64,000 bases of DNA from Pseudomonadota bacterium (GCA_021324855.1 JAJPIG010000022.1:185777-249776); one strand, 5' to 3'; positions 7,861 through 64,000 are shown, numbered from the stretch's first letter. Made by a program: numbers and translations. Notes: generated by a model not told the origin, from the sequence alone.

Positions 7861-8166
7861 TTACGGATTGGTTCCGCCGCTCGTTCCACCAGTCGCAGGC
7901 GCCGCCGGAGCGCCCGCGCCCTCAGTGCCAGTTGCGGCTTTCTCCTTGGCCTTGTGATGATGCTTGCGCCAGTGATGGTGATGATGCTTCGTCGTGGTCT
8001 TGGTCTCCGGCGCCATTTTGCCGCCACCGGACGGCGCAGCCTCGGAGGACGACGCTGCGGGCGCTGCAGGGGCGCCGCCCGCGGCCCCCGTATCTTGCGC
8101 AAACACCGGCACTGCCATCGCGCCGGCGAATACCGCCGCTGTCATCACTGAAAGGACCCGTTTCAT
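7861..8166 (-). CDS. Small secreted His-rich protein (about 101 aa)
   Basis: Start MKRVLSVMTAAVFAGAMAVPVFAQD is a signal peptide, with AGGAG nine nt upstream of the ATG. Gly/Ala/Pro-rich body with a TKHHHHHWRKHHHKAKEK cluster. The longer ORF-track N-terminus (MEKRGSL...) is probably not translated. Confidence 0.6.
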   Translation of the reverse strand: MKRVLSVMTAAVFAGAMAVPVFAQDTGAAGGAPAAPAASSSEAAPSGGGKMAPETKTTTKHHHHHWRKHHHKAKEKAATGTEGAGAPAAPATGGTSGGTNP

Positions 8167-8402
8167 CTGAGGAATCTCCTTGTGGTTTGGGCGGCCCATA
8201 AGCGAACCGCGCTTTTCCAAGCTTCAATCAAGCGAACTTTGTGCCATGGGAAAACAGTCCAGATTATTGGACCTTTCCACCGGTTCCGCCTCCACTCTAT
8301 CGCAATACGTAGAAGCATGCATCCGCTTTAAGTAGAATTTCTAATCGCATGATGGGCTAAGATTCGCAATAGCTTGCGGATCAATTTTTTGGATCCGATG
8401 GC

Positions 8403-9816: not shown

Positions 9817-10605
9817 TTGGTGCGCATCATGATTGACCGGGCGATGGGCTGGCGGCGGAATAGGAAGCTGATGGTTTGGGCGGCGCTTGCGCTCGGTATC
9901 CTCATGGCGTTGGCGGGAGCGGTGCATGCCTTCGCTGCATCGACTGCGGCCCCAAGCGTCACTGCCACGGCCGCTCCAACCATCGCTGCAACGCCGATTG
10001 GGGCTCCAGCGCCGACTTCCAGCGCCACGGCCTCGGCAACGCCGAGCGCAGCCTCGAATCACAGCGTCAACTCGATTGTATCCGCAATCAACCCGAAAGA
10101 AACACCCGGCGTGATCGCGTTGCTGCAGACCACGGACGGTTCCGAGCGCAATCCCGATAACTGGGTAGTGAGAGTCTACAAGTCGCACCATCAGCTGGTC
10201 GTCTTCTACAAAGGTCGATTGTACCGTTCATATCGCGCAGTGTTCGGCCGAAATCTCGATACCAGCGCCAAAGTTTTCGCAGGTGATCGCCGCACGCCCG
10301 AAGGCGCGTATTTTATCATCAGCAAGTATCCGAGCCGCCGATGGCGATACTTCCTCAAACTGAATTATCCCAACATGATTGATCTGTCACGTTTCGAGGA
10401 ATTGCGTGCCGCACATGAGATCCCGACCGTCGGTGGGCGCCATGCGGACGCCGGCGGCGCGATCGGGATTCACGGTACCGATGTTCCGGTTCTCAATGAG
10501 GGGAACGTCAATTGGACGACGGGGTGCATCTCCGTTGACAACGGCGCGATCGATGAGCTCGAAGCGCTGCTGCCGGTCGGAACTCTGGTCGTGATCGAAC
10601 CTTGA
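9817..10605 (+). CDS. L,D-transpeptidase (YkuD domain) with a signal-anchor and Ala/Thr/Pro-rich linker
   Basis: Catalytic His/Cys motifs IGIHGT and TTGCISV. N-terminal hydrophobic segment plus an ATP-rich linker. Confidence 0.8.
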   Translation: MVRIMIDRAMGWRRNRKLMVWAALALGILMALAGAVHAFAASTAAPSVTATAAPTIAATPIGAPAPTSSATASATPSAASNHSVNSIVSAINPKETPGVIALLQTTDGSERNPDNWVVRVYKSHHQLVVFYKGRLYRSYRAVFGRNLDTSAKVFAGDRRTPEGAYFIISKYPSRRWRYFLKLNYPNMIDLSRFEELRAAHEIPTVGGRHADAGGAIGIHGTDVPVLNEGNVNWTTGCISVDNGAIDELEALLPVGTLVVIEP

Positions 10606-10903
10606 TCATTTCAAAAATTATCCACAGCATCTCCACAAGCGATTTTTTCTCCAATTTAAATGGTGATTATTGAAGAGTTTTGTATCACATCCAAAATCTG
10701 CGATAAGTTCAGTGGATTAACGTTGTTTATAAAGCGTTAAGTAATATCAGATTATAATTGCCAATGATGAGAACGAATTCTTTGGTTGCTTTGGCATAAT
10801 TTTTCAAAACTTGCCACTCGATTTTTTAGCGAATTCGCGCCGAGATATTCCGGCTGGAAATACGAATAGAAACCATCAAAAGAAAATGCCCTGTTGACAA
10901 CTT
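10606..10903. other. AT-rich convergent intergenic island (roughly 35% GC in a 60-nt hand-counted sample)
   Basis: Lies between the 3' ends of the L,D-transpeptidase (+) and the permease (-). The composition departs sharply from the surrounding DNA. No convincing ORF. Confidence 0.5.
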
Positions 10904-12327
10904 TCAATTTAATTTTTGATGCTTCATGTAGTAGCCATAAACCGGCATACCGGAGAGCGCAATCAGAAGCCCTGGCCACGTGTAACCCGGCTTGAAGATG
11001 AGCAAATCGATCATAAGGGCGAGCGCTGCCACGATGTAGGTGGCGGGGACCCAGGGATATCCCCAGGCGTGGTACGGACGAGAGACGGCCGGCCACGCGA
11101 CTCGGAGCATAAAGACCGCACCAACCGTCAGCACGTAAAATCCGAGTTGCGCGAAAATCACATAATCGAGAAGTTCCGAGTAGGTGCCTGAGAGCGTCAG
11201 GATCGCGGCCCACAGTCCCTGAATCACCAGCGCGACGCTCGGCACGCTCGACCGGTTGAGCCGACCGGCCGCCTTGAACAATACGCCATCGAGCGCCATC
11301 GCATAGATCACGCGCGCACCCGTCAGGATCAGGCCGTTGGCGCAACCGAAGGTTGAGATCATCACGAGCACCGCGGTCAGCATCGCTCCCGGATGTCCCC
11401 ACACCACCTGCATCGCCGCCGCGGCCACCCGGTCATCGCTTGCATGCGCGATAGCCGGGGCTGGCAACTGGAAGAGGTAGGCGACGTTCGTAAGGCAATA
11501 GAGCAGGATTACGGCGCCCGTGCCGATCGCGAGCGAGAGCGGCACGTCGCGCCGCGGATCGCGCACCTCCGAGGCGGTGAAGGTCACGGTCGCCCACGCA
11601 TCAGCGGAGAACAGCCCGCCGACCATCGCAGCGCCGAATGCTGCGGCCATCCCGAGCGACCACCCCTGAGTACCGAAAAACGCGGCCGCCGATCCAAAAT
11701 TGGCAACTCGGGCGACAACATTGGGGGCGATCAGACAGCCAACAATAATTATCAAGAGCAGAGAGAGAAGCTTCGCTGCGGTAAAGGAATTTTGCACGAT
11801 TCGGCCCAGGTTGAGTCCGCGCAAGTTGGCGGCGGTCAGGAGAGCAATCACCGCGATGGCGCCCAGCCGCTCACCCGAGAGTCCCACACTGCCGATCCCG
11901 AACCAGAGCTTCGCTCCGAGCGCCGGCCAGATGACTCCGCCGAAGCGCGCGAAGGCGACTGCGACCGCCGCGATGGTACCGGTCTGGATGACCAGCAGCA
12001 GGGTCCATCCGTAGAGAAACGCCCACAGGCCGCCGTATGCTTCGCGCAGGTAGACATACTGGCCGCCCGCCTGCGGCATCATCGCTGCCAACTCGCCATA
12101 CGCGAGCGCGCCCGCGACCGTCATCAGGCCGCTCACGATCCAGACGCTGAGTAAGGCAGCCGGCGAACCGACGTGACGGACGATGTCGGCCGAGACGATA
12201 AAGATCCCTGATCCGATCATGTCGCCGGCGACGATTGCGGCGGCATCATACAGTGAGAGACCGGCGCGCAGACCCGCCGGTTCATCGACAACCAGCGTAG
12301 AAACTGGATCGGGAGCGCTCCCTCCCA
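10904..12327 (-). CDS. Amino acid permease (APC superfamily)
   Basis: Twelve predicted TM segments, GSGIFIV consensus region, about 474 aa from ATG 12327 (MGGSAPDPV...). The ORF-track extension to 12877 is Arg/Cys-rich junk that overlaps a divergent gene. Confidence 0.85.
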
Positions 12328-30086: not shown

Positions 30087-30171
30087 ACTATGTTATAAAA
30101 TCCGAACACCAACGACTCGTTTCCAATCATAGAGGCTTACAAACCGCCACCAAATATGCCATAATGTTTGC

Positions 30172-30783
30172 ATGCCTCAGGCTCGAAGAACCGCAATGAT
30201 GCACCGAGTGTCGTCAAACACGAAATCAACGATCCAGCCGCCTCCGAATCTAAAATCTGCGCCCATTCCTCCCCGTCCCAAGACCGAAGGCAACTCGTCG
30301 TTCAAAAAAGGTGAGAAAGTTGTCTATCCTGCTCACGGCGTCGCAGTAATCGACGATATTCAGGTCCGCGTAATTTCCGGCACCGAGCGCCGCTTTTATA
30401 TGCTGAAAATTCTCGGCGCGGAAAAAACGACCATTATGATTCCCACCGAGAACGTCGATGCCGTCGGACTGCGCCGCGTTATCGGCAAGGACATGGTCGA
30501 CAAAATCTACCGGATCCTGCGGCAACGCAAGGTCGAAGCTGACACCCAGACTTGGAATAGGCGCTACCGCGAGTACACCGAGAAAATCAAAACCGGCTCC
30601 CCACTCGAGATCGCAAAGGTGCTGCGCGACCTGCTGGTGCTTAAGGGTGACAAGGAACTTTCTTTCGGAGAGCGCAAGATGCTCGATACGGCACGTAGCT
30701 TGCTGGTTAAGGAGCTTTCGATTGCCAAGGCGCACTCTGAAGAGAAGATCATGGAAGAACTCAAGACCATCTTCGCCAACTGA
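30172..30783 (+). CDS. carD: CarD/CdnL family RNA-polymerase-binding transcription factor. The N-terminal 40 aa may be an over-extension.
   Basis: CarD_CdnL_TRCF domain FKKGEKVVYPAHGVAVIDDIQVRVISGTERRFYMLKI plus a C-terminal helical domain. Followed by ispD, as in actinobacterial carD-ispD-ispF loci. Confidence 0.8.
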   Translation: MPQARRTAMMHRVSSNTKSTIQPPPNLKSAPIPPRPKTEGNSSFKKGEKVVYPAHGVAVIDDIQVRVISGTERRFYMLKILGAEKTTIMIPTENVDAVGLRRVIGKDMVDKIYRILRQRKVEADTQTWNRRYREYTEKIKTGSPLEIAKVLRDLLVLKGDKELSFGERKMLDTARSLLVKELSIAKAHSEEKIMEELKTIFAN

Positions 30784-56807: not shown

Positions 56808-57830
56808 TTGCTCGAACATTCGATTTTCCTGGTCCTTAGCTTCGCGCTTATCCTCGCTGGTTCGGAGCTTTTTACCAACGGCGTAGAATGGGCCGGCCAG
56901 CGGCTTAATATCGCCGAAGCTGCTGTAGGGAGCCTGCTGGCCGCCGTCGGCACCGCCCTTCCCGAAACATTTATCCCGCTGGTCGCGTTGATTATGGGCC
57001 GGACCGGCACCGATGCGCATAGCGCGGTCGGCGTCGGCGCGATTATTGGGGCGCCGCTGATGCTCTCGACGGTCGCCCTGTTCGTGATGGGTGTCGCTGG
57101 CTTTGCCTTCCGGGGTCGGCGCGGCCACGCGGCCCTCAGAGTATCGAGGGAAGACGCCCGACGTGACCTGGCTTTCTTTATGCCCATCCTGCTGGCATTG
57201 GTCCTGCTGGGCGTCGACCACCCAAGCCCCGTTTTGCGCTACGTCGCAGCCGGAATCGTGCTCCTGGCCTACGTTGCTTACAGCATTACGATGCTCCGAA
57301 TGGCCCGCAGCACCGACTCCATCGTGGAGCAGGGACTTCATCTCGAGCGGCTCGCGCGCGGCGACCCGCTCAATCCGCGCAATGCGATCACGGCCATCCA
57401 AGTGAGCACCGGTGTACTCGCAATCCTGTTCGGCGCGCGGATCTTCGTCGATCAGATCATCCTGTTTTCGGGGCATGCCGGCATGAGTCCCGGCGTTCTT
57501 TCGCTGATCCTGAGTCCGCTCGCGACGGAACTGCCCGAGAAATACAACTCGGTCATCTGGATACGCCAGCGCAAGGACCATCTCGCGCTCGCGAACATCA
57601 CCGGCGCTATGGCTTTTCAGTCCTGCATTCCGGTGGCGCTGGGCCTTATCTTCACACCCTGGCATCTTGCGCCCGCTGAGTTGATCGGCAGCGCGGTGGC
57701 GCTGGTCTCAGCGATGATCCTCTTTCTGAATCTCCACGATGGTATCCTGAGGTTCGCGAACCTGATGATGGGCGGGGCGGCCTATGCGCTGTTCATCGCG
57801 CTGCTCGCGTTAAATGGCCTTTTCCGATGA
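56808..57830 (+). CDS. Na+/Ca2+ exchanger family (CaCA, YrbG-like) membrane protein
   Basis: Alpha-1 and alpha-2 repeats GSELFTNGVE...GTALPE and SPLATELPE. 10 TM. TTG start with GGAGG upstream. Confidence 0.8.
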   Translation: MLEHSIFLVLSFALILAGSELFTNGVEWAGQRLNIAEAAVGSLLAAVGTALPETFIPLVALIMGRTGTDAHSAVGVGAIIGAPLMLSTVALFVMGVAGFAFRGRRGHAALRVSREDARRDLAFFMPILLALVLLGVDHPSPVLRYVAAGIVLLAYVAYSITMLRMARSTDSIVEQGLHLERLARGDPLNPRNAITAIQVSTGVLAILFGARIFVDQIILFSGHAGMSPGVLSLILSPLATELPEKYNSVIWIRQRKDHLALANITGAMAFQSCIPVALGLIFTPWHLAPAELIGSAVALVSAMILFLNLHDGILRFANLMMGGAAYALFIALLALNGLFR

Positions 57831-57848
57831 CGGTCGATAGCGTCGGCG

Positions 57849-60152
57849 ATGGATCGATATCAGCATATATCGAGCCAGTTTTATGGCAATCGGCTCCTCT
57901 TCGGCGACCCGAGTGAGGATTCGATAGTCGCGCTCGAAATCGCGTCGCCGACCGAGGTTGAAATCTTCCGCCGCCGCCATGGCGAGTTAAGCCGCGAACG
58001 CCGGCCATTGAGATTGTTTCTGCTGCTCGCCGATCGCGAGCTGATGAAAGGAACACGCATCCCCCACGAGACCGTCGAGATGGCGGGCGATTTCCGCTTC
58101 CGCTACCTCGTGAGTTTCGGTTCCACCGCCGGGCTGGAGAGCGCCAAGCGCCACCTCCGGAACGTTTCGGGGAAGGCTGCCAGCGCCGCCGATGCGCCAT
58201 ATTTCGTACTGAGCGACCCGATCGAACAGCACCTGATGCTCACCGGTTCAACTTTCTTCATCGGGCTCAGTTTCCAAGACCTGCGCCGGATGCAACTCGA
58301 TATCGAGACCTACACCAGCAGCGGTTTCGAGTTCGCCTCCGCCGGACGCGAAGGCGACCGCATCACGGCCATCGCGATCACCGACTCAACCGGTTACGAG
58401 CGCGTGCTCGACGGCCATAAGACGGACGAGCGGACGATGCTGGAAGAGCTGGTGCAAATTGTCAATGAGCAGGACCCCGACGTGATCGAAGGTCACAATC
58501 TCTTCCGCTCGGACCTCGAATATCTGGAACAGCGCGCGCGGCGGCACAAACTCAAGCTGGCGCTGGGCCGCGACGGCAGCGTGATGCGCGCGCGGGCTTC
58601 GCGGCTCCAGATCGCCGAGCGCACGATCGCCTACCGGCGTTACGAGATCTATGGCCGCTCGGTAATCGACACTTGGATCCTTGCGCAGTTCTATGACATC
58701 GCGAGCCGCGAGCTCGAAGGTTTCGGCTTACGCGAGCTGGCCGAACATTTCCGGATCGCGGGCCCCGATCGCGTCTATCTCGATCCCGCCCGCATGAGTC
58801 ATTACTTCGATCGCGAGCCTGAGCTGCTGATGCGGTCGGCGCTCGAAGACGCGCGCGAAGCGGGCGCGCTCGCTGCGCTGCTCGCGCCCAGTTACTTCAT
58901 TCAGGCACAGATTTTCCCATACTCGTTCCAGAATGTAGTGCTGCGCGGCAATGCGACGCGCATCGATGCCCTGCTGATACGGAACTACCTTGCCGCGCGC
59001 CATTCGATTCCCGCACCCGCCGAGCCCTCCGAGGTCGCCGGCGGATACACCGAGATGCGCCGCTGCGGCGTAGCGCGCGGCGTACTGCATTGCGATGTAA
59101 CGTCGCTTTATCCCTCGCTGATGCTCCAGTACGGGTATGCGCCGCAGAACGATCGGCTCGGCGTTTTCCTCAAGATGCTCGCTGATTTGCGCCGCTTTCG
59201 AATCGAGGCGAAGGCGGCCGCTGCCGAAACCAGCGGCGCCGAGCGCCACAATTTGGACGCGATGCAGCAGACCTTCAAAATCCTGATTAACTCGTTTTAT
59301 GGGTATCTCGGTTTCGCGCTCGGCCACTTCAACGATTTCATTGCAGCCAATAACGTCACGCGTCAGGGCCGCGATTTGATCCAGAAGGCGATCGGCGTCC
59401 TCGAAGGCGCCGGCGCGCAAGTGATCGAATGTGATACCGACGGGATCTATTTCGTTGCGCCTTTTGCATTCGAAGATGCGGGCGCGGCCGAGGCGCTGTT
59501 GGAAAAAGTCGCTGCGGCGATGCCTGAGGGAATCCGGCTCGAAATCGACGGGCGTTATCCGGCGATGTTCTCATACAAGATGAAGAATTACGTCCTGCTC
59601 GATGAAGACGGCACGACCACGATTCGCGGTTCGGGCCTGCGCTCGCGCGGGCTCGAACGCTTCCAGCGCCGTTTCATGGAGGATTTTTTCCATCGCTTGC
59701 TATCCGATCGGCGCGACGAAATTCCGGCTCTCTACGACGATTATCGCCGTCGGATCGAAAGTCACGAATTCAGTATCACTGACTTGATGAAGACCGAGAC
59801 CATCCAGGATTCGCTCGAGGTCTACCGTCAGAAAATCGCGGCGAAGCGCCGCAATCCCGCCGCCGCATACGAACTCGCGCTCAAGTCCCAGCGGCCGTTT
59901 CAGAGCGGCGATCAGATCTCGTACTACGTCACCGGCCGGGGCGCGCGCGTCAAGGTCAATGTAGCCGCGAAAATGGCATCCGAGTACGACCCCGCCAATC
60001 CCGACGAGAACGTTGAGTATTATCAGGCCAAGCTCGCGGATCTCTACGAAAAGTTCCGGCCGTTTGCCGACCGGCCGGGTCTGTTCCCCGCCGATGCTCT
60101 CGAGCGTGGCGAAGAACCGGCGCAGCCCGGAATTTTTGACGGCCAGAAATAG
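57849..60152 (+). CDS. polB: Family B DNA polymerase (DNA polymerase II-like, with 3'-5' exonuclease)
   Basis: Exo I LDIETYT. Exo II block DPDVIEGHNLFRSDLEYL, comparable to E. coli Pol II DPDVIIGWNVVQFDLRML. Motif A DVTSLYPS. Motif B KILINSFYGYLG. Motif C CDTDGIY. KxY variant YKMKNY. 767 aa. Confidence 0.88.
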   Translation: MDRYQHISSQFYGNRLLFGDPSEDSIVALEIASPTEVEIFRRRHGELSRERRPLRLFLLLADRELMKGTRIPHETVEMAGDFRFRYLVSFGSTAGLESAKRHLRNVSGKAASAADAPYFVLSDPIEQHLMLTGSTFFIGLSFQDLRRMQLDIETYTSSGFEFASAGREGDRITAIAITDSTGYERVLDGHKTDERTMLEELVQIVNEQDPDVIEGHNLFRSDLEYLEQRARRHKLKLALGRDGSVMRARASRLQIAERTIAYRRYEIYGRSVIDTWILAQFYDIASRELEGFGLRELAEHFRIAGPDRVYLDPARMSHYFDREPELLMRSALEDAREAGALAALLAPSYFIQAQIFPYSFQNVVLRGNATRIDALLIRNYLAARHSIPAPAEPSEVAGGYTEMRRCGVARGVLHCDVTSLYPSLMLQYGYAPQNDRLGVFLKMLADLRRFRIEAKAAAAETSGAERHNLDAMQQTFKILINSFYGYLGFALGHFNDFIAANNVTRQGRDLIQKAIGVLEGAGAQVIECDTDGIYFVAPFAFEDAGAAEALLEKVAAAMPEGIRLEIDGRYPAMFSYKMKNYVLLDEDGTTTIRGSGLRSRGLERFQRRFMEDFFHRLLSDRRDEIPALYDDYRRRIESHEFSITDLMKTETIQDSLEVYRQKIAAKRRNPAAAYELALKSQRPFQSGDQISYYVTGRGARVKVNVAAKMASEYDPANPDENVEYYQAKLADLYEKFRPFADRPGLFPADALERGEEPAQPGIFDGQK

Positions 60153-60391
60153 GCTCGATGGCCTCCAAGGCGTTGTCTTTGATCGAAATTGCCTAGAATC
60201 GACCTAGTGCGCAATTCCTTACCGGGATTTTCTCGACCGGGAAAATCCAAAAAACGTAAATTTCGGATAAAAGCTGGTGACGTAGCATCAATTCATGCTA
60301 TAAAAATGGACATACTGTGTAAAAGTGATATAAAATAGTAAAAAGATGACTGTAATTTTTTACAGGGATATCTGAAAAAGGGTGGGATAAT
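60153..60391 (+). promoter_or_regulatory. Very AT-rich promoter island upstream of the beta-helix protein gene
   Basis: Hand-counted GC about 22-33% in two 60-nt samples. Contains GTGACG-16nt-TATAAA and an extended -10 TGATATAAA. Inverted repeat GGATTTTC/GAAAATCC. Strong SD AAGGGTGGG five nt before the ATG. Confidence 0.45.
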
Positions 60392-61357
60392 ATGGCAGGC
60401 ATACAAAGAAAATTGTGGACCGGAAGCTTGATTGTCGCGCTGCTGCTGGCGGCCTCGGTTTCGGGCTTTGCGCAGGTCGGATTGGGCGATTGCACGAAAA
60501 AACCCATCTCAATAAAGAGTTCCGGCAGCTATGTCCTGAAGCACAATGTCGCCTCGAAGAGCGGGAAGGACTGCATTGACGTTCTTGCGTCCAACGTCAC
60601 CATCGACCTGAACGGATTCGCCATTCTCTCGGGACTCGTGGGAATCAATGCTGCCAACAAGACTTACATTTCGATTCGTAACGGCATGGTCACCGGAATG
60701 ACCGGGCCGGGCATAGTTGTAGGCGGCTACAGCACGGTCCAGGGAGTGCATTCGAACCTCAACGCCGGTGACGGCATCTTATGCGAGGGTGACGGATGTG
60801 TGATTTCGGACAACTCGGCTGACGGGAATCAAAATAACGGGATCGAGGTGACCGGCAACTACGCCCGGATCTCGGGCAACACGGCCAATGGCAACACTAA
60901 CAGCGGGATCCTCGCCGGCTCGGGCTCTTCGGGCCAGTCCAATATCATCACCGGGAATACCGCCAATGGGAATGCCAGCAACGCCGGCATCCAGTGCGGT
61001 TACAACGCCATCGTCAACGGCAACACGACCGATGCGAACGGCGGTGACGGCATCAACTGCGGTACCGGGTCGACAATCGATGGCAATATCGCGTCGCTCA
61101 ATCATGGTTCCGGAATAAGTACCGGTGATAACGTCCGCATCGGGGCCAACGTGCTGAACGACAACAGCAGCGACGGCATCAGGACGGGCACGGCGCTGGT
61201 CCAGGGTAACGAGACCAACGGCAACGGCGGTTATGGACTCAATACCAGCAGCGTTGGTACGGGATTCACCGAGAACGTTTTCAACAGCGACTCGAGCGGC
61301 GCGGTCCGCAACGGTGTCAGCCTCGGAAACAACGTGTGCGACGGCACGAAATGCTAG
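60392..61357 (+). CDS. Secreted right-handed parallel beta-helix repeat protein (NosD/CASH-like fold)
   Basis: Signal peptide. About ten tandem repeats of roughly 22 aa of the form GN.A.GN...GI (GNTANGNTNSGILAG, GNTANGNASNAGIQCG, GNTTDANGGDGINCG...). C-terminal Cys pair. Confidence 0.6.
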   Translation: MAGIQRKLWTGSLIVALLLAASVSGFAQVGLGDCTKKPISIKSSGSYVLKHNVASKSGKDCIDVLASNVTIDLNGFAILSGLVGINAANKTYISIRNGMVTGMTGPGIVVGGYSTVQGVHSNLNAGDGILCEGDGCVISDNSADGNQNNGIEVTGNYARISGNTANGNTNSGILAGSGSSGQSNIITGNTANGNASNAGIQCGYNAIVNGNTTDANGGDGINCGTGSTIDGNIASLNHGSGISTGDNVRIGANVLNDNSSDGIRTGTALVQGNETNGNGGYGLNTSSVGTGFTENVFNSDSSGAVRNGVSLGNNVCDGTKC

Positions 61358-61375
61358 TCTGATCGCCTGCGCAAC

Positions 61376-61410
61376 GCACGGCGAGGGCGGGCACGCCGTG
61401 TCATTTTCGT
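61376..61410 (+). terminator. Rho-independent terminator after the beta-helix gene
   Basis: CACGGCG-agggcgggca-CGCCGTG followed by TCATTTTCGTT. Confidence 0.5.
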
Positions 61411-61650
61411 TCCCGCCGACCGCAAATAGTGTTCACGCGCGCCTGATGGTTGCCGGCGGTAATCATCGGAACTGGTCGATCAACGCCTCGCCTGTCTGAA
61501 GCGCCATGGCAGGCGGCGTGCCCGCAAGGAACGCGCTGACAAATAGCCGCCCGGTTTCCCATCTTTGAACGAGTCGATAGTATATCAGGGTCAATTGATA
61601 TAAATTCAAGCTGGTTCCGAAACCAAAACTTACCATCTCCGGGGGAAATT

Positions 61651-63591
61651 GTGGCCAATCCAGCCTGCCTCAGAAATTATGGCGCGGTTGCGTTCTCGAT
61701 AGTCATCGCGCTCGCGCTTTCCATCGCGCCGGCTGAGGCCGAAGGCCAGCCGTCCTCCTACTATCCAGGCGAGCCACCATTCTGCATCTCTCATCCCGGA
61801 TTCTGCGCCGACGCCGTTCCTCCCACGTGGGACGGTAAATACGTCGGCCACGACGAGCCGTCGCTGATCTTCTACTCAAGCACGCCCGGTGCGGGGAACA
61901 ATTCCATCTACATGGTGACGCTGCCGAAGGATCCGCCGACGCTGCCGAAGCAAAACGGCAAGGGCGGGACGTTCAACTTCCAGCTTCATCCGGCGTTCTG
62001 GTTCGGTATGGCGATGTGCGATACGCAATCGTTTCCTGAGTATAACAACAGCACCTGCCAAGCTGACAGCGACACCAACATCTTCGACGACGGGAACTCA
62101 GCCTCGGCATCCTATATTGGTCATCATCCCGGCACCGCATTCATGGAGATGCAGTTCTATCCACCGGGATGGGTAAGTTGGGCGAAAGGTGGGAATTCAT
62201 GCGACGGCAAGCATTGGTGCGCGGCACTGAATATCGACAGTCTGAACGAGGATCCGCTTACCGGCGCCTACAACAACACCGATTGCTATAACAGAGTCGG
62301 TTACGAACCCGTCAACTTCGCGTTTATCACTAAGAGCGGCATCGCCGACAGCCCGGGCGATCCCCTCAATAACGGCCACTTCACACCCAATCTCAAGACC
62401 GACCTGCTGATGAACCCCGGCGACAAGTTGATCGTCGACCTGCACGACAGTACAGACGGCTTCCAGGTCGTCATCTATGATCTCACTTCGCACAAGACCG
62501 GCTCGATGACCGCGAGCATCGCCAACGGCTTCAAGCAGGTGATGTTCGAGCCCAGCTCGGGAACCTGTCACAGCCAGAGCTATGCGTTTCATCCGATGTA
62601 CTCGACGGCGAGTCCGCACACGCGGGTTCCGTGGGCGGCACATTCGTACAACATCGCGTTTGCCGATGAAATTGGGCACTGGGAGTATTGCGCCTCGGCC
62701 GACCCGACTACCGGCCTCTGCCTGAGTGGCGGCGACTCGGACAACGATGATCAAGTCTGTTTCAATGGCTTGGATTCGACCCGGATAAAGGTCGGCGGAT
62801 GCATCGGGACTGAGTTCGATTTCGACGGCGCCTGCTATCAAAACAACTGGCCGGGCAGTAATCCGGTTGCGGTCGACAAGAAACTACATCCAAAGGCGAT
62901 CCTGTTTTCGAGCCCGCTGCTGGCGCCGTCCGTAGGCGGGCCGTTCCAGAACTACTCGTCGACGGCGTCGGAAGCCGACCTACCAATAATTGAATATAAT
63001 GCCGGATTCTCCTGTGATACTTCCAGCGGCTCGGGATGCATCAATCCGCCGCCGAATGCGACCTTCTATCCCTTTTTCTCGACCATGACAGTGGCCAACA
63101 TATGCGAGTGGGCGTTGGGCGGCTCGATGCTTTCCGGTGCCGGCTTGCCTTTCGGCAGTGACTCGAATGCCGCGTTCGGCAGCATCTACCCACTCACCTA
63201 TGCCGATGCATCGGGTTCGTACGTCCAGTACAACAATTTCCAGAAGGCACTCGGCAGCAATCCCTGTCAGGCGCCGGTCGCCAATCTCAAGGTGCCTTCC
63301 AAGCCGATAGGTTTCGGCACGCGGGCCAAGGGTTCGCCGAGTCCGGCGAAAACATTTGCGATCGTGAACCAGAGCCCGTATCCGATCGCGGTCGCGAGCA
63401 TCACTCCAACCAACTCCGACTACACGCTAATCAAGAACGGATGCAGTCCGCTGATCGCCCCGCTCGCCAGTTGCGACCTTAAGGTGAAATTCACGCCGAG
63501 CGTCACCGGAGCCGACCCCGGCGGATTGACGTTGAACGACGACGCGAGCAACGGTCCGCAGACCATCACGTTCACCGGCTCGGGCCGTTGA
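61651..63591 (+). CDS. Large secreted Cys-rich protein of unknown function with a C-terminal beta-sandwich (choice-of-anchor-D/ASH-like) domain
   Basis: Signal peptide AVAFSIVIALALSIAPAEA. Many Cys, Asp/Asn/Gly-rich. C-terminal roughly 100 aa (TFAIVNQSPYPIAVASITPTNSDYTLIKNGCSPLIAPLASCDLKVKFTPSVTG...) resembles Ig-like domains that bind surface or cell-wall components. Confidence 0.5.
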   Translation: MANPACLRNYGAVAFSIVIALALSIAPAEAEGQPSSYYPGEPPFCISHPGFCADAVPPTWDGKYVGHDEPSLIFYSSTPGAGNNSIYMVTLPKDPPTLPKQNGKGGTFNFQLHPAFWFGMAMCDTQSFPEYNNSTCQADSDTNIFDDGNSASASYIGHHPGTAFMEMQFYPPGWVSWAKGGNSCDGKHWCAALNIDSLNEDPLTGAYNNTDCYNRVGYEPVNFAFITKSGIADSPGDPLNNGHFTPNLKTDLLMNPGDKLIVDLHDSTDGFQVVIYDLTSHKTGSMTASIANGFKQVMFEPSSGTCHSQSYAFHPMYSTASPHTRVPWAAHSYNIAFADEIGHWEYCASADPTTGLCLSGGDSDNDDQVCFNGLDSTRIKVGGCIGTEFDFDGACYQNNWPGSNPVAVDKKLHPKAILFSSPLLAPSVGGPFQNYSSTASEADLPIIEYNAGFSCDTSSGSGCINPPPNATFYPFFSTMTVANICEWALGGSMLSGAGLPFGSDSNAAFGSIYPLTYADASGSYVQYNNFQKALGSNPCQAPVANLKVPSKPIGFGTRAKGSPSPAKTFAIVNQSPYPIAVASITPTNSDYTLIKNGCSPLIAPLASCDLKVKFTPSVTGADPGGLTLNDDASNGPQTITFTGSGR

Positions 63592-63679
63592 TTCGCTGCA
63601 TCGGGCAGGATCGATGCGAGCGGCAGAAAGTCCTGCCGTTCGCATCCGACGAAATTCGCGAAAGGCCGAATGCGAATAT

Positions 63680-64000
63680 TTAGACGCCTAGATGGATTCG
63701 AAAAGCATCGGTCAGCGCGGGCACCAAAACATTGAAATCTCCAACCAGGCCGAAGCTCGCGCGCTCGAAGATCGCAGAGTCCCGCTCCTTGTTGATCGCG
63801 ACGATCGTCCGCGCGCGTTTGATTCCCACCGTATGATTCGGCTGGCCGCGAATGCCGATCGCGAAATAGAGCCGCGCATCGATCGCCTTGCCGGTCAGGC
63901 CGACCTGCAACTGCCGCGGCATCAGCCCCTGGTCGGTGACGCGCCGCGTCGCGCACATCCCTGCCCGGATCGTGCGCGCGAACTCCTTGCACAGCTCGAT
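63680..64000 (-). CDS. etfA: Electron transfer flavoprotein alpha subunit, C-terminal part. The gene continues beyond the window end.
   Basis: FAD-binding C-terminal domain LYFAIGIRGQPNHTVGIKRARTIVAINKERDSAIFERASFGLVGD. Confidence 0.75.
   Translation of the reverse strand: MELCKEFARTIRAGMCATRRVTDQGLMPRQLQVGLTGKAIDARLYFAIGIRGQPNHTVGIKRARTIVAINKERDSAIFERASFGLVGDFNVLVPALTDAFRIHLGV

Follow-up and report, generated by a model that had tools for sequence, protein, structure and literature searches.

Two-glutamate peptidases built on a beta-sandwich are represented by HC7 of Bacillus cereus (PDB 8PMU/8PN5; DUF3472), a di-glutamate mucinase (PMC13003899), and by neprosin (PDB 7ZU8/7ZVC; MEROPS G3), in which E188 and E297 form the catalytic pair in the sandwich (PMC9343461), and they are related to the G1 eqolisins. 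Right-handed parallel beta-helices are found in CASH/PF13229 proteins such as AlgE4/AlgE6/AlgG, NosD, tailspikes and GH87, and domains of the choice-of-anchor D type, with an ASH/PapD-like Ig fold, have counterparts in the Vibrio proteases VesB/VesC, in Cep192 and in HYDIN. At the level of the chromosome, variable hotspots and genomic islets combine conserved flanks with a content that turns over.

Here we compare with these systems a locus in a 64-kb stretch of DNA (the window, analysed as a whole) from a soil Binataceae bacterium. The overall GC content of the window is 61.9%, lower than the genome value of about 65% given in an earlier note on this DNA. We consider, with a probability of about 0.6, that the region is a variable slot after polB which holds two independent, Sec-exported accessory genes, unequally shared by relatives, where ORF B is enzyme-like, an AT-rich tract serves as promoter and leader of ORF A, and separate transcripts are most likely. 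While the locus as such is ordinary, its main interest lies in the N-terminal domain of ORF B, which belongs to a very large unnamed family.

Gene content after polB in the Binataceae

The left flank is a conserved family-B DNA polymerase gene, polB (57849-60152, + strand), with Pfam matches to DNA_pol_B (7e-21) and DNA_pol_B_exo1 (6.9e-12). On the right, the 3' end of a conserved gene for fused ETF beta/alpha (63680-64000, - strand) was recognized by Pfam and tblastn; the full-length gene in another locus (L001) encodes 608 aa with the Pfam domains ETF and ETF_alpha, and tblastn gave 100% identity to window positions 63683-64000. The flanks proposed in the earlier note, polB on one side and etfA on the other, were thus borne out.

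Relatives of polB at 55-85% identity were collected from 80 metagenome loci, and the gene right after polB varied across the 76 Binataceae loci, in agreement with the proposal that the DNA separating polB from etfA is accessory. In three loci with an 84% identical polB (L002, L087 and L151, which represent one sister lineage, as their polB and ORF B identity figures are the same), the order was polB-ORF B-etfA, so that ORF B intervenes and polB is not directly followed by etfA. These loci had neither ORF A nor the AT-rich tract, and ORF B started at most 98 bp past the polB stop codon. As such, ORF A and the AT-rich tract are a separate difference from the sister loci. ORF B was 71% identical to its sister counterpart, and the neighbouring Na/Ca exchanger was 72% identical. 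A locus with an 85% identical polB carried PPK2 after polB and no ORF B, 32 more distant loci carried an Rv2258c-like methyltransferase, and more than 25 other genes also occupied this position. ORF B was not at the site in loci with a 55-75% identical polB, and ORF A with its AT-rich tract was missing from all relatives at the polB site. In comparison to variable hotspots and genomic islets, the flanks are likewise conserved (Na/Ca exchanger-polB on the left, etf on the right where found nearby) and the content likewise turns over, from methyltransferase or PPK2 to ORF B or ORF A plus ORF B.

To what extent the two genes differ from their surroundings was analysed by composition. The GC contents of ORF A (57.6%) and ORF B (58.4%) are lower than those of the neighbours (60.5-61.5%), as the earlier note had stated, but the difference is small and confined to codon position 1 (0.49 and 0.51, respectively), and therefore reflects amino-acid composition. 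GC3 was 0.748 for ORF A and 0.74 for ORF B, similar to that of polB (0.743; neighbours 0.743-0.777). The deviations of synonymous codon log-likelihood, -0.10 and -0.11, lie at the low end of the native range, which extends from -0.19 to +0.10. No tRNA was found in the window and no flanking repeats longer than chance, and none of the ORFs in 56-64 kb encodes an integrase or transposase. In contrast with hotspots, the locus thus shows no integrase, tRNA, direct repeats or synonymous-site compositional anomaly, and the suggestion of horizontal acquisition was for the most part not supported.

ORF A is a small secreted beta-helix protein

ORF A (60392-61357, + strand) encodes a 321-aa right-handed parallel beta-helix repeat protein, based on Pfam, AF2 and Foldseek. 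Residues 1-27 form a Sec-type signal peptide with a cleavage site read by eye as GFA|QV and no lipobox Cys, so export past the inner membrane is predicted, and the protein carries a C-terminal Cys pair. The match to PF13229 (Beta_helix) scored 39.7 bits (E 4.7e-10), above the family cutoff of 25.9. In the AF2 model (pLDDT 93), approximately 33 short strands are arranged in about 11 rungs, close to the ten or so rungs that had been read from the sequence. Foldseek matched AlgE4/AlgE6/AlgG, NosD, tailspikes and GH87 at 12-17% identity, with a probability of 1.00 to AlgE4, AlgG, NosD and tailspikes, while the best TM-score to a solved structure was 0.63 (NosD).

ORF A shares with these CASH/PF13229 proteins the fold and the GNxAxxNxxxGI rung repeat, but it is much smaller (about 290 aa when mature), with no identifiable catalytic residues, and no Pfam lyase or hydrolase match was obtained. 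An assignment as NosD was rejected: no PF05048 match was found at E<=0.1, there are no nos genes nearby, the neighbours being polB, ORF B and etf, and the likeness to 7osf is generic to beta-helices. The nearest homologue is 34% identical. The members of its family are small, secreted and paralogous, and their N- and C-terminal caps are conserved; the family is fast-evolving and forms tandem arrays in other Binatia, and within the public data searched ORF A itself was found only in this genome. ORF A may have arrived by insertion, accompanied by about 240 bp of AT-rich DNA on its upstream side; alternatively, the relatives may have lost it.

The AT-rich tract, promoter-like elements and transcript ends

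The AT-rich island upstream of ORF A is real, although not as extreme as first described. While a GC content of 22-33% had been given for 239 bp, the measured value for 60153-60391 was 38.5%, and about 30% was reached only in a core of approximately 150 bp (60242-60391, + strand), which probably provides ORF A with its promoter and 5' leader. The minimum 100-bp GC of all 64 kb, 27%, starts at 60280, about 5 SD under the mean. The core was not found in 80 of 80 polB-linked relatives, where the minimum GC at the junction was 0.39-0.50. DNA upstream of ORF A relatives in other genomes has a GC content of 49-62% and is not AT-rich. No mobile-element feature, tRNA fragment, Rfam RNA or repeat was recognizable in the tract.

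Within the tract, a putative sigma-70-type promoter was read by eye on the + strand (60307-60334), with TGGACA at 60307-60312, a 16-nt spacer, TG at 60326-60327 and TATAAA at 60329-60334; a second TGCTATAAA lies near this site, at 60296-60304. A consensus scan of the tract returned one + strand site, TGGACA-18-TAAAAT (10/12), and we judged the register with the 16-nt spacer to be better. Over 3.8 kb, the promoter scan gave 3 sites compared with 2.2 +/- 1.3 in shuffles, that is, no enrichment. The promoter-like character of the tract that the earlier note described is supported.

Exactly two copies of the 9-mer TGATATAAA, both on the + strand, are present in the 64 kb, against an expectation of 0.08, and none of 100 shuffles reached this number. 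One copy ends 58 nt before the start codon of ORF A, and the second, an extended -10-like element found by motif search at 61596-61604, ends 47 nt before that of ORF B. The more general motif TGNTATAAW has four sites in the window, all of which are located at most 100 nt upstream of + strand genes, carD among them. Considering that an AT-rich motif tends to fall in AT-rich intergenic DNA anyway, the argument from the placement of TGATATAAA and TGNTATAAW is weakened. Judged from sequence, both genes have an element similar to the sigma-70 extended -10 (TGnTATAAT) at a suitable distance. ORF B also has a putative ribosome-binding site, GGGGGA, 6 nt 5' of its GTG start.

A perfect palindrome, CTGTAA-TTTT-TTACAG (60350-60365, + strand), was read where the 5' leader of ORF A is predicted and forms a small hairpin in the predicted fold of 60335-60400; it is a candidate operator or leader hairpin. 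After the polB stop codon, a weak hairpin (60225-60248, + strand; GGATTTTCTCG / CGGGAAAATCC, inverted repeat I10; -12.8 kcal/mol, z = -1.4) is followed by an A-run and may mark the end of the polB transcript. Downstream of ORF A, a terminator-like element (61376-61412, + strand) consists of a hairpin at 61376-61401 with an 8-bp stem (-14.3 kcal/mol) and a U-rich tail, UCAUUUUCGUU. While hairpin and tail are plausible, the clean terminator claimed for 61376-61410 is not clean, as its energy is no stronger than that of shuffles (z = +0.3), and read-through into ORF B is possible. Between the convergent ORF B and etfA, on the other hand, a strong GC-rich hairpin with a 14-bp stem (63613-63646; -32.9 kcal/mol; z = -4.7 on the + strand and -3.7 on the - strand) is likely a bidirectional transcript end.

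In the arrangement that we propose, the AT-rich tract would act as promoter and leader of ORF A (TGGACA-16-TGnTATAAA), ORF B would keep its own TGATATAAA promoter element, and the weak hairpin with its U-tract would divide the two transcripts. Since each gene has a promoter-like element of its own, the two are most likely transcribed separately.

ORF B combines an unnamed ConA-like domain with an Ig-like domain

ORF B (61651-63591, + strand) encodes a secreted, Cys-rich protein whose AF2 model has a pLDDT of 86.6 and a pTM of 0.86. The signal peptide (aa 1-30), predicted to direct export past the inner membrane, and a disulfide-rich ConA-like beta-sandwich (aa ~40-540) are encoded by 61651-63270, and a C-terminal Ig-like domain with the stop codon by 63283-63591. 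Residues 540-634 adopt the ASH/PapD-like Ig beta-sandwich fold of the choice-of-anchor D type and matched NF012200 with 39.5 bits (E 6.6e-10), under the curated cutoff of 45, while a family relative (P0244) reached 92.6 bits. ORF B ends in ...TFTGSGR directly after this domain, without a sorting signal, TM helix or lipobox, and no NCBIfam sorting-signal match was found. As no PEP-CTERM, LPXTG, GlyGly-CTERM or T9SS signal follows, the domain is not an anchor here, and its role is probably that of a spacer or of a binding module. As for the earlier description of ORF B as a Cys-rich secreted protein of no housekeeping family with a choice-of-anchor-D-like end, secretion, the Ig-like fold and the absence of a housekeeping family (Pfam, NCBIfam) were confirmed, but neither the anchor role nor the adhesin-like character was, and the large domain resembles hydrolases by fold.

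The N-terminal domain of about 500 aa had no sequence match in Pfam, NCBIfam or PDB. Even at E<=10, ORF B and 29 divergent relatives gave no Pfam match for this domain, and a profile search of the PDB returned nothing. The family nevertheless comprises 2035 cluster representatives (50% clustering) and is present in at least 530 species genomes, with members in soil bacteria of many phyla and in a few archaeal MAGs, and its cultured hosts are Streptacidiphilus and Catenulispora. ORF B is 45-56% identical to members from different phyla over about 500 aa. In an alignment with members down to 32% identity to ORF B, H67, D68, E69, E166, Q168, Y170, E219, D258, D266, H343 and eight Cys are invariant, and E340 is near-invariant.

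The domain was modeled confidently with the concanavalin A-like lectin/glucanase fold, and its nearest neighbours are the di-glutamate peptidases HC7, the top Foldseek match, and neprosin, along with GH16-type beta-glucanases and the JCSG 'putative two-domain sugar hydrolase' BACCAC_02064 (PDB 4QHX), which is itself uncharacterised. Compared with HC7 and neprosin, the ORF B domain has roughly twice their size and carries long Cys-rich elaborations, and a pro-domain is not evident; sequence similarity could not be detected (6-10% identity), and no Pfam match to Peptidase_A4, Neprosin/DUF239 or DUF3472 was found at E<=10. An assignment to GH16 was also rejected, as the invariant columns contain no ExDx(x)E, the sequence on the conserved strand is F-M-E166-M-Q168-F-Y and Glyco_hydro_16 was not matched; no CAZy-type family match was obtained.

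Based on fold similarity at 6-10% identity, the N-domain is probably an extracellular hydrolase. The sandwich would hydrolyse an extracellular polymer (protein, glycoprotein or glycan) by a chemistry comparable to that of its nearest structural neighbours, which use two glutamates. Candidate catalytic residues, picked from the alignment and with carboxylate, amide and His side chains, are E166/Q168/Y170 on one strand, E219, E340/H343 and H67-D68-E69.

Discussion

The earlier note had joined ORF A, ORF B and the AT-rich tract into a single surface or adhesin-like cassette within core DNA, possibly of horizontal origin and possibly silenced through the tract, for which a nucleoid protein bound there could be the agent. 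Such a cassette would account for the variation of the polB-etfA interval across relatives, for a tract that contains the lowest 100-bp GC content in the window and for two exported proteins of no housekeeping family, and other Binatia have beta-helix genes followed by a secreted protein with a choice-of-anchor-D-like Ig end. However, synteny weakens it, since in the loci with an 84% identical polB this site holds ORF B but neither ORF A nor the tract, and this, together with the promoter-like element of each gene, speaks against a single unit. At 71% identity, ORF B has diverged as neighbouring core genes have, GC3 and codon likelihood are native-like, integrase, tRNA and flanking repeats were not found, ORF B lacks an anchor signal, nothing in the data hints at silencing, and a silencer is not known from this phylum; we regard the cassette as very improbable. 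Alternatively, the two genes could be a functional pair, co-transcribed from the AT-rich promoter, in which a beta-helix polysaccharide-active protein and a ConA-like hydrolase act on the same extracellular substrate. The shared orientation, the 293-bp spacer and the weak hairpin between the genes fit a pair, as do Ca. Binatus loci, which repeatedly place beta-helix genes beside proteins with choice-of-anchor-D-like ends, but the downstream proteins of these clusters are not homologous to the ORF B N-domain. ORF B also occurs without ORF A in the closest relatives and in 80 of 80 other family loci examined, with no conserved neighbour, and it is equipped with a promoter-like element and a ribosome-binding site of its own, so a pair seems unlikely.

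With regard to the AT-rich tract, it might be mainly a scar, the decayed remnant of whatever element or recombination introduced ORF A, and not a functional promoter. Its restriction to this genome, its coincidence with ORF A-specific DNA and the higher GC upstream of ORF A relatives would agree with a scar. We give this little credence, because no mobile-element or repeat feature was recognizable in the tract, whereas a near-consensus -35/extended -10 is suitably spaced from the start codon, and its 9-mer is found again before ORF B, with a related one before carD. As for ORF B, ConA-like sandwiches are common among lectins as well, and the protein could be a secreted lectin or binding protein, with a carbohydrate-binding sandwich and an Ig module for attachment to or sensing of extracellular polymers. 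The conservation across phyla is unusually high, the His, Asp, Glu and Gln residues that stay invariant in the most divergent members are more typical of catalysis or metal binding, and the best-scoring neighbours of known function are hydrolases; a lectin is thus rather doubtful.

We thus favour a variable slot with two independent genes and an enzyme-like ORF B. We tentatively suggest that the family of its N-domain may define new, very widespread extracellular ConA-fold hydrolases, a possible third or fourth independent 'glutamic'-type lineage, of peptidases or glycan-peptide hydrolases, beside eqolisins, neprosin and the HC7 mucinases. Streptacidiphilus and Catenulispora are acid-soil actinomycetes, and, if the suggestion is true, such hosts would be in line with an enzyme that is active in acid and takes part in the turnover of organic nitrogen or carbon.

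Distribution and conservation of the ORF B family

ORF B (61651-63591, + strand) encodes a protein of 646 residues that carries a signal peptide and matches no Pfam family above threshold. A word-indexed search returned more than 5399 homologues, nearly all of which are "hypothetical proteins" of about 550 residues without a Pfam domain, and the C-terminal Ig domain of ORF B is absent from most of them. When 1.84 billion cluster representatives were searched with a profile, 2035 family members were found at E<=0.001 (619 at E<=1e-30), and at least 530 carriers were confirmed when one genome was scanned for each species. These include Binatia, Chloroflexota (Anaerolineae and Ktedonobacterales), Actinomycetota, Acidobacteriota and Dormibacterota, as well as Melainabacteria, Methylocella, Stellaceae and one archaeal MAG (locus L049), so that the family may reach into the archaea. 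Cultured carriers are present among the Actinomycetota, in Streptacidiphilus and Catenulispora species.

Across some 500 residues, members from different phyla share 45-56% identity with ORF B. In an alignment that included members down to 32% identity with ORF B, eight Cys residues, H67-D68-E69, E166-x-Q168-x-Y170, W189, E219, D258, D266, W328, H343 and Y473 were invariant, and E340 was conserved in at least 90%. Single-sequence and profile searches with the N-terminal domain (N-domain) matched no PDB chain, and no Pfam model matched this domain at E<=10 in ORF B or in 29 divergent relatives. Pfam, NCBIfam and PDB all lack a representative of the family, and "hypothetical protein" is the annotation of every named member. 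Look-ups for closer strains through two proteins, P0121 and P0392 (the latter the same protein, differing by V/M at the start), found none. Among 80 species genomes, no conserved neighbour of ORF B emerged, the best neighbour cluster being present in only 10 loci of a single actinobacterial clade. Longer relatives carry extra domains, which are Ig-like (ASH, TIG, AIR9) or FG-GAP modules. Two divergent relatives, P0339 and P0369, end in "PEFP" followed by a hydrophobic helix and a basic tail, resembling the archaeal PEF-CTERM-type sorting signal; NCBIfam gave no confirmation of these tails.

Fold and putative activity of ORF B

The predicted structure of the ORF B N-domain (residues ~40-540) superposes on ConA-like jelly-roll proteins, and its top Foldseek match is HC7, which is described in PMC13003899, citing Narimatsu et al. 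2024, as a di-glutamate mucinase of Bacillus cereus. Another beta-sandwich enzyme, the prolyl endopeptidase neprosin, has the catalytic pair E188/E297 and is structurally related to the Glu/Gln eqolisins (PMC9343461). The model, which is confident, sets the ORF B family beside this small group of two-glutamate beta-sandwich hydrolases. Considering the fold together with the signal for export, the disulfide bonds and the polar residues that do not vary, we infer that the N-domain is probably an extracellular hydrolase of this general type, which would act like the two-carboxylate beta-sandwich hydrolases. Because the GH16 catalytic motif is absent from ORF B and no peptidase family model matches, the hydrolase role is proposed rather than assigned. 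That ORF B is a non-catalytic lectin is a serious rival explanation. By none of the tests run is the N-domain a member of G1, G3, DUF3472 or GH16; it has a known fold and lies outside every described sequence family.

The C-terminal 100 residues of ORF B, which the earlier note had called an Ig-like anchor domain, do have an Ig fold, but the anchor part of this description is not supported. The match to choice-of-anchor D scored 39.5 bits, below the curated cutoff of 45, and no anchor signal follows the domain. By fold the domain is of the ASH/choice-of-anchor-D type, and in relatives by sequence too.

ORF A is a small secreted beta-helix protein

ORF A (60392-61357, + strand) encodes 321 residues with a Sec-type signal peptide and a Pfam Beta_helix match above threshold. 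Its AlphaFold model, built with 56 homologues, has a pLDDT of 93, a pTM of 0.87 and about 11 three-stranded rungs, and Foldseek aligned it with right-handed beta-helix proteins at 12-17% identity, among them the mannuronan C-5 epimerases AlgE4, AlgE6 and AlgG, NosD, phage tailspikes and GH87. The earlier description of ORF A as a signal-peptide beta-helix protein was thereby confirmed. The best TM-score, 0.63, was to NosD; although the folds are alike, ORF A has no PF05048 match and no nos genes nearby, and orthology with NosD was ruled out. The closest sequence relative among 5.8 billion proteins searched is only 34% identical. Proteins of the ORF A family are small (about 260-370 residues) and secreted, and they have in common an N-terminal cap that is conserved, P-x-x-I...GSY-x-L...VTIDLNGF-x-I, and a C-terminal motif, G-x-N-x-C...C. 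ORF A adds a new and divergent protein to the known beta-helix (CASH) class.

Among the relatives compared, ORF A itself was found in the genome of the window only. On contigs of the Ca. Binatus type, relatives of ORF A stand in tandem arrays of three paralogues that are 50-60% identical to each other (L166/L167, 2802-7258; L169, 4997-7516; L170, 2524-6630). The arrays of L166, L167 and L170 are followed by a gene for an exported protein of 480-522 residues, of which the copy scanned, from L166, ends in a choice-of-anchor-D-like Ig domain. This gene order resembles that of ORF A and ORF B; the 480-522-residue proteins have no BLAST similarity to ORF B and are not homologous to its N-domain. 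In L166 and L167, a sigma-54 two-component regulator pair lies downstream on the opposite strand.

Gene order and composition at the polB-etf site

The family-B DNA polymerase gene polB (57849-60152, + strand; Pfam DNA_pol_B and DNA_pol_B_exo1) precedes ORF A, and the 3' end of a fused ETF beta/alpha gene on the - strand lies downstream of ORF B. In the Binataceae MAG GCA_035531675.1 and two metagenome contigs, polB is 84% identical to that of the window, and the order is sigma-70, Na/Ca exchanger, polB, ORF B and etf (-). Since the polB and ORF B identity figures are the same in all three loci, they probably represent one lineage. ORF B begins there 62-98 bp past the polB stop, with neither ORF A nor the AT tract. 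Identities between this lineage and the window are 71% for ORF B beside 72% for the Na/Ca exchanger, 84% for polB and 93% for sigma-70, which suggests vertical inheritance of ORF B inside this small clade. When the polB-ORF B spacer of one of these loci (L002) was aligned to the two intergenic regions of the window, the scores were 19 and 21 against shuffle means of 21.4 and 20.0, so the alignment marks out no insertion boundaries. As judged from these sequences, the comparison is compatible with either an insertion of ORF A or its loss in the one sister lineage available.

Other relatives differ in what follows polB. Another contig, with a polB 85% identical, has a PPK2 gene directly after it, 32 loci with polB 64-74% identical have an Rv2258c-like HTH-methyltransferase gene, often followed by etf, and elsewhere more than 25 other genes hold this position, so the slot after polB is variable. 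Across 80 Binataceae-like loci (L086-L165), a gene for an Na/Ca-exchanger-family membrane protein stands immediately upstream of polB in about 50 (56808-60152 in the window), and the gene downstream is highly variable. In one of these loci, L112 (8186-9719), the polB-etf slot holds two extra genes and a GC dip (39% over 100 bp at ~8451) before the usual methyltransferase is reached; it is another case of turnover at this site.

Both genes are lower in GC than their neighbours, as had been claimed, but modestly (57.6% for ORF A and 58.4% for ORF B). The difference lies wholly at codon position 1, where the two genes have a GC of 0.49 and 0.51 and their neighbours one of about 0.65, and is due to an amino-acid composition rich in Asn, Ser, Thr and Gly, not to foreign codon usage. 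GC3 is 0.748 for ORF A and 0.74 for ORF B, the same as in polB (0.743) and in the Na/Ca exchanger (0.748). In a synonymous-codon likelihood test the two genes score -0.10 and -0.11, inside the span of -0.19 to +0.10 that 18 native genes cover but toward the low side of it. No integrase or flanking repeat was found around ORF A and ORF B; a repeat search around the insert gave beta-helix rung repeats and short matches at chance level, and no target-site duplications. Neither gene looks recently foreign at synonymous sites. Of the proposal that the two genes form one acquired cassette inserted between polB and etfA, the variable slot stands, while a single unit is not supported, as the two genes differ in their distribution among relatives, nor is a recent foreign origin.

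The AT tract and promoter-like elements

Between the polB stop and the ORF A start lie 239 non-coding bases with 38.5% GC overall, of which the AT core (60242-60391) has about 30%. An AT-rich tract thus exists, but the 22-33% GC reported for all 239 bp overstates both its extent and its depth, and the value of about 65% given for the genome is too high, the window having 61.9%. The 100-bp segment of lowest GC in the whole 64 kb begins at 60280 (27%; mean 61.9%, sd 6.4), and the junction minimum over 100 bp is 0.28 in the window genome's own contig (L001) versus 0.39-0.50 in relatives. Second in AT content is an island at 10606-10903, with about 30% GC across 150 bp and 29% across 100 bp. A YkuD L,D-transpeptidase gene (9817-10605, +) and, from the other side, an amino-acid permease-like ORF (-, ending at 10904) converge on it with their 3' ends, so it is no promoter island of the kind described here. 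Elsewhere in the window, a small ORF (7861-8220, -) encodes 119 exported-looking residues with a His-rich tract, HHHHHWRKHHHK, and Ala/Gly/Pro-rich low-complexity sequence, and may specify a periplasmic metal-binding protein. No RNA family was found by Rfam at E<=1 in 59500-64000, and no tRNA in the whole window.

The 9-mer TGATATAAA, which matches the extended -10 consensus TGnTATAAT, has exactly two copies in the 64 kb, both on the + strand (0.08 expected; two copies in 0 of 100 shuffles). The copy ahead of ORF A ends 58 nt from its ATG, with TGGACA 16 nt ahead of it and a second element, TGCTATAAA, 30 nt upstream; the other ends 47 nt before the GTG start of ORF B, which has GGGGGA ahead of it. 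The degenerate form TGNTATAAW has four matches, all on the + strand and at most 100 nt upstream of + strand genes, a placement to be read with the bias of any AT-rich motif toward AT-rich intergenic DNA. The fourth match, TGTTATAAA (30091-30099), is 73 nt before the start of carD (30172-30783), in an AT-poor intergenic dip. The sites at carD, ORF A and ORF B suggest that TGnTATAAA may be a common -10 form in this organism; a generic promoter scan was not enriched over shuffles. From this motif placement, the AT tract is predicted to supply the promoter and leader of ORF A, with a separate promoter for ORF B; transcription would start near 60341 and 61611. Both upstream regions were also read by eye for a sigma-54 (-24/-12) promoter, which was rejected since they lack the GG-N10-GC spacing and the TTGC element. 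The predicted leader contains a perfect palindrome, CTGTAA-TTTT-TTACAG (60350-60365), which could be an operator.

The "clean terminator" placed at 61376-61410 after ORF A does comprise a hairpin (61376-61401) followed by UCAUUUUCGUU, but its stability is no better than that of shuffled sequence (z = +0.3), and "clean" is not warranted. The 293-bp spacer between ORF A and ORF B, folded as a possible structured RNA, was not notable (z = -1.4). Between the convergent ORF B and etfA stands a very stable, GC-rich hairpin of 14 bp (63613-63646), with a folding energy of -32.9 kcal/mol and z-scores of -4.7 (+ strand) and -3.7 (- strand). Neither side shows a U-tract, and the hairpin may mark where transcripts end in both directions or be a REP-like element.

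Significance

Taken all together, the locus is an ordinary one, in which accessory secreted-protein genes occupy a variable intergenic slot with a predicted AT-rich promoter in a GC-rich genome, and its reading as a cassette silenced through the AT tract is largely unsupported. It also gives a caution, as the slightly low GC of the genes suggested horizontal transfer but came from amino-acid composition. The ORF B family is of greater interest, being very large, conserved, secreted and uncharacterised, with candidate catalytic residues, and cultured hosts such as Streptacidiphilus and Catenulispora put it within direct experimental reach. Neprosin- and HC7-type enzymes serve as tools in proteomics and glycoproteomics, so the family, if enzymatic, could also be of biotechnological interest. 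Its sequences number in the thousands and come from Binatia of soils, Chloroflexota, Actinomycetota, Acidobacteriota and further groups; an enzymatic activity of ORF B, if true, would add a class of enzymes relevant to the turnover of extracellular polymers in soils.
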